This document shows positions 3,939 through 4,756 of a stretch of DNA of 5,952 bases, one piece after another (the first letter of the stretch is position 1; every line of letters starts with the position of its first letter). The notes beneath the pieces were generated by a model. It saw only the letters and a program-made list of their open reading frames with translations. It was not told the DNA's origin and ran no database searches. The DNA lies in the IMG/VR virus record IMGVR_UViG_2648501437_000007; one strand, 5' to 3'. A program made the translations under genes and the position numbers. Origin of the DNA: a virus (Duplodnaviria > Heunggongvirae > Uroviricota > Caudoviricetes).

Positions 3939-3957
3939 ATTTTATAACCCATATACG

Positions 3958-3984
3958 GGCGCCAGAAATGGCGCCTTTTTTATT
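3958..3984 (+). terminator. Rho-independent terminator immediately downstream of J
   Basis: Perfect palindromic stem GGCGCC (3958-3963) / GGCGCC (3970-3975) with loop AGAAAT, followed by TTTTTTATT (3976-3984). Begins 20 nt after the J stop (TGA 3936-3938). Confidence 0.75.
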
Positions 3985-4005
3985 GCAGAAAAGCGAGAGG
4001 TAATT

Positions 4006-4605
4006 ATGCGTAAAGTTTGTGCAGCCATTTTGTCCGCAGCCATCTGTCTGTCCGTATCCGGTGCGCCTGCATGGGCGTCTGAACATCAGTCCACACTGAG
4101 CGCGGGGTATCTTCATGCCCGTACGAACGCTCCCGGCAGCGATAATCTGAACGGGATTAACGTGAAATACCGTTATGAGTTTACGGACGCGCTGGGGCTG
4201 ATTACGTCCTTCAGTTATGCCAATGCTGAGGATGAGCAAAAAACGCACTACAGCGATACCCGCTGGCATGAAGATTCCGTGCGTAACCGCTGGTTCAGCG
4301 TGATGGCGGGGCCGTCTGTGCGCGTGAATGAATGGTTCAGCGCGTATGCGATGGCGGGTATGGCTTACAGCCGTGTGTCGACTTTCTCCGGGGATTATCT
4401 CCGCGTAACTGACAACAAGGGGAAAACGCACGATGTGCTGACCGGAAGTGATGACGGTCGCCACAGCAACACGTCTCTGGCGTGGGGGGCTGGCGTGCAG
4501 TTTAACCCGACCGAATCCGTGACCATTGACCTTGCTTATGAAGGTTCCGGTAGTGGCGACTGGCGAACGGATGCATTTATTGTTGGTATCGGATACCGTT
4601 TCTGA
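4006..4605 (+). CDS. lom: Lom outer-membrane protein (Ail/Lom/PagC/Rck family 8-stranded beta-barrel); classic lambdoid moron
   Basis: 199-aa ORF with RBS GAGAGG at 3995-4000. N-terminal signal peptide MRKVCAAILSAAICLSVSGAPAWA with an A-W-A cleavage motif (4006-4077). Mature protein has alternating hydrophobic/aromatic beta-strand patterns and the C-terminal aromatic residue (…GIGYRF) typical of outer-membrane beta-barrels. Strong similarity to phage lambda Lom as I recall it, and the conserved position between J and stf. Confidence 0.92.
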   Translation: MRKVCAAILSAAICLSVSGAPAWASEHQSTLSAGYLHARTNAPGSDNLNGINVKYRYEFTDALGLITSFSYANAEDEQKTHYSDTRWHEDSVRNRWFSVMAGPSVRVNEWFSAYAMAGMAYSRVSTFSGDYLRVTDNKGKTHDVLTGSDDGRHSNTSLAWGAGVQFNPTESVTIDLAYEGSGSGDWRTDAFIVGIGYRF

Positions 4606-4710
4606 CAACAGACGCCGATTTATCTTCTGTAAATATTGTTATGATACGCAGGTTCATCCACCTTATGGGGTGAACTGCGTTTGAGGAAACGTAAAGTTAC
4701 ACTGTCCTGA

Positions 4711-4742
4711 AGCCCGTGGCGTCACTGCTGCGGGCTTTTTTT
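4711..4742 (+). terminator. Rho-independent terminator downstream of lom, ending 15 nt before the stf start codon
   Basis: Stem AGCCCGUGGCG (4711-4721) / UGCUGCGGGC (4726-4735) including G-U pairs, loop UCAC, followed by a run of 7 T (4736-4742). Confidence 0.7.
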
Positions 4743-4756
4743 ATTGGTGGAAAAGT

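Follow-up and report, generated by a model that had tools for sequence, protein, structure and literature searches.

The window analysed here, a stretch of 5952 bases, is the tail end of a lambdoid E. coli prophage. Its closest complete genome was that of the O111:H2 strain 12A, with 99.3% identity from window position 212 on. All 28 differences between the window and this genome fall in 1117-1778. As the earlier note on this DNA had described, a lom gene sits between the tail gene J and a side-tail-fibre gene (stf): the lom open reading frame covers 4006-4605, J ends at 3938 and stf starts at 4757. The features of the region are listed below.

458-3938, plus strand: J, split into two open reading frames (458-1351 and 1293-3938), with its stop codon TGA at 3936-3938
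3939-3956, plus strand: backbone spacer after the J stop codon, also present where phages 1W and PhiR11_1* have J and stf without lom in between
3957-3984, plus strand: terminator 1, the predicted backbone terminator of J, with a stem-loop at 3957-3976 and the T-run TTTTTTATT at 3976-3984
3985-4005, plus strand: lom leader of 21 nt and left end of the cargo, with the Shine-Dalgarno sequence GAGAGG at 3995-4000
4006-4605, plus strand: lom coding sequence, 199 aa, intact, identified by Pfam and PHROG matches, an AlphaFold model, Foldseek and a sequence match to 9wso_C
4565-4756, plus strand: linkage block, composed of the last lom codons (C-terminus ...GIGYRF) and the 151-bp lom-stf spacer
4606-4692, plus strand: ~87 bp of additional 3' spacer that the 64-bp spacer of the lambda type lacks
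4646-4680, plus strand: third hairpin (H3), −18.1 kcal/mol, z −4.0, with no T-run following
4709-4745, plus strand: terminator 2, the predicted cargo terminator and right end of the cargo, with a stem at 4709-4738 and the T-run TTTTTTATT at 4737-4745
4746-4759, plus strand: ribosome-binding region and start codon (ATG, 4757) of stf (Pfam phage_tail_N, E 1.9e-68)

The prophage is decaying. Positions 1-221 matched an annotated IS5 element (98.2%), with homology to strain 12A beginning at 212, and J is frameshifted by one C at 1222 that the closest genome does not have; lom is intact. The split of J at 1222 marks either a pseudogene or a sequencing error. In the closest genome, a gene of 112 aa lies between the tail-assembly gene I and J, and this gene is cut by IS5 in the window. 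Because I and J are adjacent in other relatives, it looks like a second moron, now disrupted. Its intact protein begins with MNKTILFCTIIALTGC..., has a lipoprotein-type signal, and had PHROG 914, a family without known function, as its only match. What is left of the gene in the window (212-457) has 40% GC, and its own hairpin with a T-run (415-435) ends shortly before the J start. At the other end of the window, the side-tail-fibre gene contains long collagen-like Gly-X-Y repeats at 5500-5830 (Pfam Collagen, E 3e-18; GC up to 70%). Unlike in lambda Stf, this repeat region precedes a Phage_fiber_C domain.

The lom product matched Pfam PF06316 (Ail_Lom) with an E value of 4.3e-126 and 418.7 bits (cut-off 23) over residues 1-199 of 199, and PHROG 108, 'Lom outer membrane protein', with an E value of 1.4e-109. 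These matches bear out its earlier naming as a lom gene of the Ail/Lom family. By inspection, a signal peptide occupies about codons 1-24 (...AWA before SE), with MRK and a hydrophobic core, and a helix was modelled at residues 2-18. The C-terminus, ...GYRF, likewise shows by inspection the terminal aromatic residue for outer-membrane insertion. An AlphaFold model built from a three-clade alignment reached a pLDDT of 89.4; a run with a shallow alignment gave a pLDDT of 40 and was discarded. The retained model has eight strands (residues 29-40, 47-58, 63-81, 86-106, 111-135, 141-166, 172-181 and 188-198) and very long beta3-beta4 and beta5-beta6 hairpins. Its top Foldseek matches were Ail (3qrc/3qra) and OmpX (1qj9). 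As modelled, Lom is an eight-stranded antiparallel, Ail/OmpX-like outer-membrane barrel with a predicted Sec-type signal peptide, and its two very long hairpins would project outside the cell.

Ail of Yersinia (3qra/3qrc) and OmpX of E. coli (1qj8/1qj9) have the same barrel (Foldseek E 5e-16, target TM-score 0.80-0.85; sequence E 1e-19), at an identity to window Lom of ~31-32%. The second and third extracellular hairpins are much longer in window Lom, and Ail lacks ~4 and ~15 residues there. PagC and Rck were likened to window Lom by family membership. The genes for Ail, OmpX and PagC lie on the chromosome and that for Rck on a plasmid; none of them is phage cargo. Window Lom also matched the sequence of the solved lambda Lom, chain C of PDB entry 9wso (9wso_C, 206 aa). 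The other chains of this entry are neither lambda J nor Stf, and a new Lom function may be reported there. For lambda Lom, adhesion to buccal cells is cited in PMC3594210.

Other open reading frames around lom were rejected as genes. Neither the antisense frame 3931-4608 (225 aa) nor small frames in the spacer matched Pfam or PHROG, with a single exception below threshold: the minus-strand frame 4697-4921 hit PF24311 in Pfam, at 15.8 bits against a cut-off of 27.

Both sites that flank lom consist of a hairpin and a T-run, that is, a G+C-rich stem followed by a U-run, and they are predicted intrinsic terminators. Terminator 1 has eight pairs and a GAAA loop (−15.7 kcal/mol, z −3.98) and terminator 2 has 13 pairs (−24 kcal/mol, z −4.58); for each, 0 of 200 shuffles were as stable. 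Two terminators had been proposed at 3958-3984 and 4711-4742. Stable hairpins with T-runs were indeed found at 3957-3984 and 4709-4745, and the earlier coordinates were correct to within 1-3 bases. Terminator-like motifs in the window numbered seven, compared with 5.5 ± 2.1 by chance, so their total was not above chance. The three strongest were all on the plus strand, one per intergenic gap, and ended 11-23 nt before the next start codon; for terminator 2, this distance to the stf start codon is 11 nt.

Conservation of the hairpins was assessed in ~96 lom loci from viral contigs and genomes. The upstream hairpin was present in 14 sequence variants, 12 of which were used for covariation. Among these 12 distinct variants, both sides changed in four of the eight pairs, 0 of 500 shuffles reached the covariation score, and 93.8% of cells were paired, compared with 37-65% when the partners were slid. 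At terminator 2, changes within a class were one-sided only. Lambda has a hairpin with a T-run at both positions, with stems different from those of the window. Given the covariation of hairpin 1 and the lambda hairpins at both positions, the two flanking hairpins are real, conserved structures. After the cargo gene, a different hairpin with a T-run was found in each of the lambda-type, window-type, Gifsy-1 and phi24B loci, and the Citrobacter locus had a fifth stem with only a weak T-run. Every spacer class examined had a hairpin equivalent to terminator 2. Luk and Szybalski reportedly described classical terminators of the late operon 3' of J in 1983. In some loci (L041, L057, L071 and related ones), the loop of hairpin 1 was the reverse complement, CCATTTCTGG compared with the usual CCAGAAATGG, on the same stem (equivalent to 3964-3969). 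Inversion or template switching within a palindrome would be expected to leave such a pattern.

The limits of the cargo were set by junctions that lack lom, which were found with a query joining the 3' end of J to the 5' end of stf. In phages 1W, PhiR11_1*, mEp460_4F5, ev017 and others, J and stf lay ~60 bp apart, without lom. In 1W and PhiR11_1*, the spacer consisted, in this order, of the J stop, the first hairpin of the window, TTTTTTATT, the stf ribosome-binding site and ATG. Since hairpin 1 is kept in these two lom-less phages, it is the J terminator of the backbone and not part of a cassette. The cargo is composed of the 21-nt leader, lom, the spacer and terminator 2, at about 3985-4745, with TTTTTTATT at both joints. 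This 9-mer has exactly two occurrences in the window, at 3976-3984 and 4737-4745, and its position at both joints makes recombination between the two terminator T-tracts a plausible route for the gain or loss of lom. The ribosome-binding region of stf, a sequence of the GTGGRGTGAATATG type, came directly after terminator 1 where the junction was empty and after terminator 2 where it was occupied. The leader was nearly invariant over the 14 upstream variants, including those of lambda, Citrobacter and a MAG, and was absent from empty junctions. At the same J-stf site, Gifsy-1 carries an unrelated 80-aa open reading frame (PHROG 2243, function unknown), followed by a hairpin and T-run. With different cargo in Gifsy-1, the junction appears to be a recurrent slot.

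In PMC3594210, which summarises Juhala et al. 2000, a moron is defined as having a promoter and a terminator of its own, and lom is named among the examples. Among close relatives, lom was present or absent at one site, and it is followed by its own predicted terminator (terminator 2, 4709-4745). Base composition did not deviate, with 55.0% GC in lom, 56.4% in J and 53.8% at the 5' end of stf; lom has the same GC as the genes beside it, so its composition gives no hint that it is foreign. In the comparative sense, as given by the lom-less relatives with J and stf ~60 bp apart, lom is a moron, in agreement with the earlier note. The further description of the cassette as 'insulated' and 'self-contained' held only in part. 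Both hairpins are real, but the first belongs to the backbone, the cargo leader is 21 nt long and no sigma-70-like site was found on the plus strand. That lom is insulated is plausible, while 'self-contained' goes beyond the data.

All this makes it very probable that lom is a classical moron of lambdoid phages, in an allele common among E. coli prophages. It is a standard prophage-borne accessory gene, and thousands of E. coli genomes contain this allele and spacer or have them annotated. As a discovery, the arrangement therefore has little weight; it is real but well known. What is added here concerns its anatomy: the cargo is bounded by two terminator T-tracts, the first of the two terminators is a backbone feature, and the leader leaves no space for a promoter within the cargo.

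The lambda lom moron (J - lom - stf/orf-401; NC_001416 18965-19585) has the same position and gene order as that of the window. Like the window, it has its hairpins with T-runs after J and after lom; the leader with its Shine-Dalgarno sequence and the stf start are conserved, and the N-terminus of stf has ~90% DNA identity to that of the window. The differences are a Lom that is 42% identical, different stems in both hairpins, and a 3' spacer of 64 bp compared with 151 bp. The middle of J and the N-terminus of stf had 85-90% DNA identity to lambda. Over 3485-4605, the receptor-binding C-terminal part of J and lom both diverge from lambda, at ~50% DNA identity. Cargo between late genes, followed by a hairpin and T-run abutting the next ribosome-binding site, is also seen in HK97 gene 15 and the Gifsy-1 80-aa frame (PMC3594210). 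Their proteins are unrelated to Lom: HK97 gp15 is an inner-membrane superinfection-exclusion protein (PMC3594210) and the Gifsy-1 protein belongs to PHROG 2243.

For the analysis of Lom divergence, the core was defined as the residues within about ten positions of each strand's periplasmic end, together with the periplasmic turns. Window Lom and lambda Lom were only 42% identical overall, with 28% identity in the extracellular part and 57% in the core (Fisher p = 2e-4). The core held 43 of the 98 mature-protein differences. The claim that this copy differs from lambda Lom mainly in its loops therefore stands as far as the lower extracellular identity goes, but not as a statement on where the differences lie. 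Among 72 distinct close alleles, variable sites made up 45% of positions outside and 31% of the core (p = 0.08), without significant loop enrichment. The dN/dS values among close alleles were 0.13 for the extracellular part, 0.20 for the core, 0.48 for loop 1 and 0.15 for the third hairpin, and the long third hairpin was nearly invariant. Concentration of substitutions in loops, which had been set beforehand as a test, was thus seen in the deep comparison with lambda and not within the clade. The lack of enrichment in the 72 alleles and the lower dN/dS outside than in the core likewise give no support to an evolution of host-interaction specificity focused on the loops.

Variation among the alleles took the form of discrete, reassorting blocks: loop 1 came in at least four types, loop 2 and the C-terminus in two types each, and the signal peptide also fell into types. 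The segment ...ANAEDEQKTH... is the majority loop-2 allele of the window clade. For this clade, the allele comparison shows that Lom diversity stems from recombined blocks under purifying selection, and not from fast-evolving loops, which is a further addition to what was known of lom. Many Lom variants in the databases are 183-185 aa long (P0038, P0040, P0061, P0074, P0087 and others) and lack 14-16 residues at ~97-113. The missing residues cover strand 4, turn 2 and strand 5, between repeated WFS motifs. These variants probably arose by slippage, their deletions would disrupt the barrel, and they are likely dead alleles.

The 3' end of the gene revealed a further boundary. In most phage relatives, homology to the window ended at 4565-4595. 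The C-terminus ...GIGYRF was found with the 151-bp spacer in 18 of 18 cases, and ...GVGYKF with the 64-bp lambda-type spacer in 53 of 53. Because the C-terminus type is perfectly tied to the spacer class, one joint of the mosaic falls within the 3'-terminal part of lom, and the unit is consequently not exchanged only as a whole. The whole 151-bp lom-stf spacer was present, unannotated and at 99% identity or more, in 1650 of 5426 complete E. coli genomes. Strains of E. coli O157:H7 and O104:H4 carry it in identical form.

In lambda, Q-modified polymerase reads through late-operon terminators. During lytic growth of a phage with the window's arrangement, Q-modified polymerase from the late promoter would read through both terminators, as is established for lambda. 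In this scheme, a predicted intrinsic terminator of the backbone sits directly after J, and the cargo is inserted right after its T-run. In the repressed prophage, terminator 1 would then prevent read-in, and terminator 2 read-out into stf. Transcription of lom in lysogens would come from a promoter overlapping or upstream of terminator 1. Since the cargo leader has only 21 nt, the promoter is not inside the inserted DNA, which leaves a site that overlaps terminator 1 or one upstream of this terminator. A scan of the whole window for the sigma-70 consensus gave no plus-strand site. An approximate PWM scan of the 400 bp before lom gave weak candidates only, none of them at matching lambda positions. 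Both scans covered sigma-70-type sites.

The earlier note took lambda Lom to be expressed from the prophage. Expression of lambda lom in lysogens has been reported (PMC1151598, PMC7067206), but in one array study, which also noted how little is known about the lom promoter, lom mRNA was undetected in lambda lysogens (PMC2147009). The lom gene of phi24B is expressed independently of phage regulation and equally in lysogens and induced cells (PMC3342100).

One interpretation of these data has two parts and, taken as a whole, is speculative and rather unlikely. According to it, the lom cargo would have no promoter of its own and would be expressed in lysogens from a start in or upstream of the backbone terminator, either by a non-canonical overlapping promoter or by conditional read-through, so that terminator 1 would be a gate and not an insulator. 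Separately, the strongly conserved 87-bp 3' segment, with a stable hairpin and then a terminator, might be the source of a 3'UTR-derived small RNA in the many E. coli prophages, those of EHEC included, that have this segment.

An alternative, which we consider improbable, is that lom is a passenger of the late operon without independent transcription. The hairpins would then be RNA 3'-end or stability elements or weak pause sites, and the lom product in lysogens would stem from leaky read-through or from spontaneously induced cells. The absence of a detectable promoter, the cargo leader of only 21 nt, the existence of hairpin 1 without lom and the array study in which lom was undetected in lysogens (PMC2147009) are all consistent with such a passenger. 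However, lom transcripts have been reported from lysogens (PMC1151598, PMC7067206), and the level of phi24B lom expression is the same with and without induction (PMC3342100). Leaky read-in would moreover be blocked by hairpin 1, a strong terminator of canonical form, and lom is intact in the window even though J is frameshifted and the upstream region is disrupted by IS5.

It is very improbable that terminator 1 forms part of a lom control region, with a start at or just before the hairpin (e.g., at TATAAC, 3943-3948), the hairpin and U-run acting as an attenuator or 5' stabilising stem, and lom output set by conditional read-through: TATAAC, 8 nt ahead of the hairpin, is conserved in window-type loci, and the leader after the hairpin is nearly invariant even between 42%-identical alleles, but TATAAC has no −35 partner, is outside the top-scoring sites and is missing from lambda, and junctions without lom also carry both this sequence and the hairpin, which are hence not lom-specific. 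The anatomy of the cargo sharpens the old question of where lom transcription starts in lysogens and makes it directly testable.

The extra segment of the 3' spacer, a stem-loop and then a terminator, resembles a 3'UTR-derived small RNA, the resemblance being one of layout only. In H3, compensatory changes were sought and none was found; its outer stem was broken in both divergent copies. Structural constraint on H3 is therefore unsupported. An Rfam search of the whole window at E <= 1 gave no match in the spacer. A GcvB hit at 218-443 scored 19.6 bits against a gathering score of 42 and was treated as chance. A literature search gave no small RNA mapped to the 151-bp spacer.

The closest parallel in position is 24B_1, a microRNA-size RNA of the Stx phage phi24B, which, as in the window spacer, is a non-coding feature just after lom (PMC4426718). 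The phi24B region that encodes 24B_1 had no homology to the lom-stf spacer (4606-4756), and phi24B is a podovirus with another genomic context; the window spacer is no member of this type. For the 24B_1 region, no Rho-independent terminator was predictable (PMC4426718). Directly 3' of the lom stop codon, phi24B has a clear hairpin with a T-run, ACCCGCTGTGATGGCGGGTTTTTTATT (locus L005, 1254-1310).
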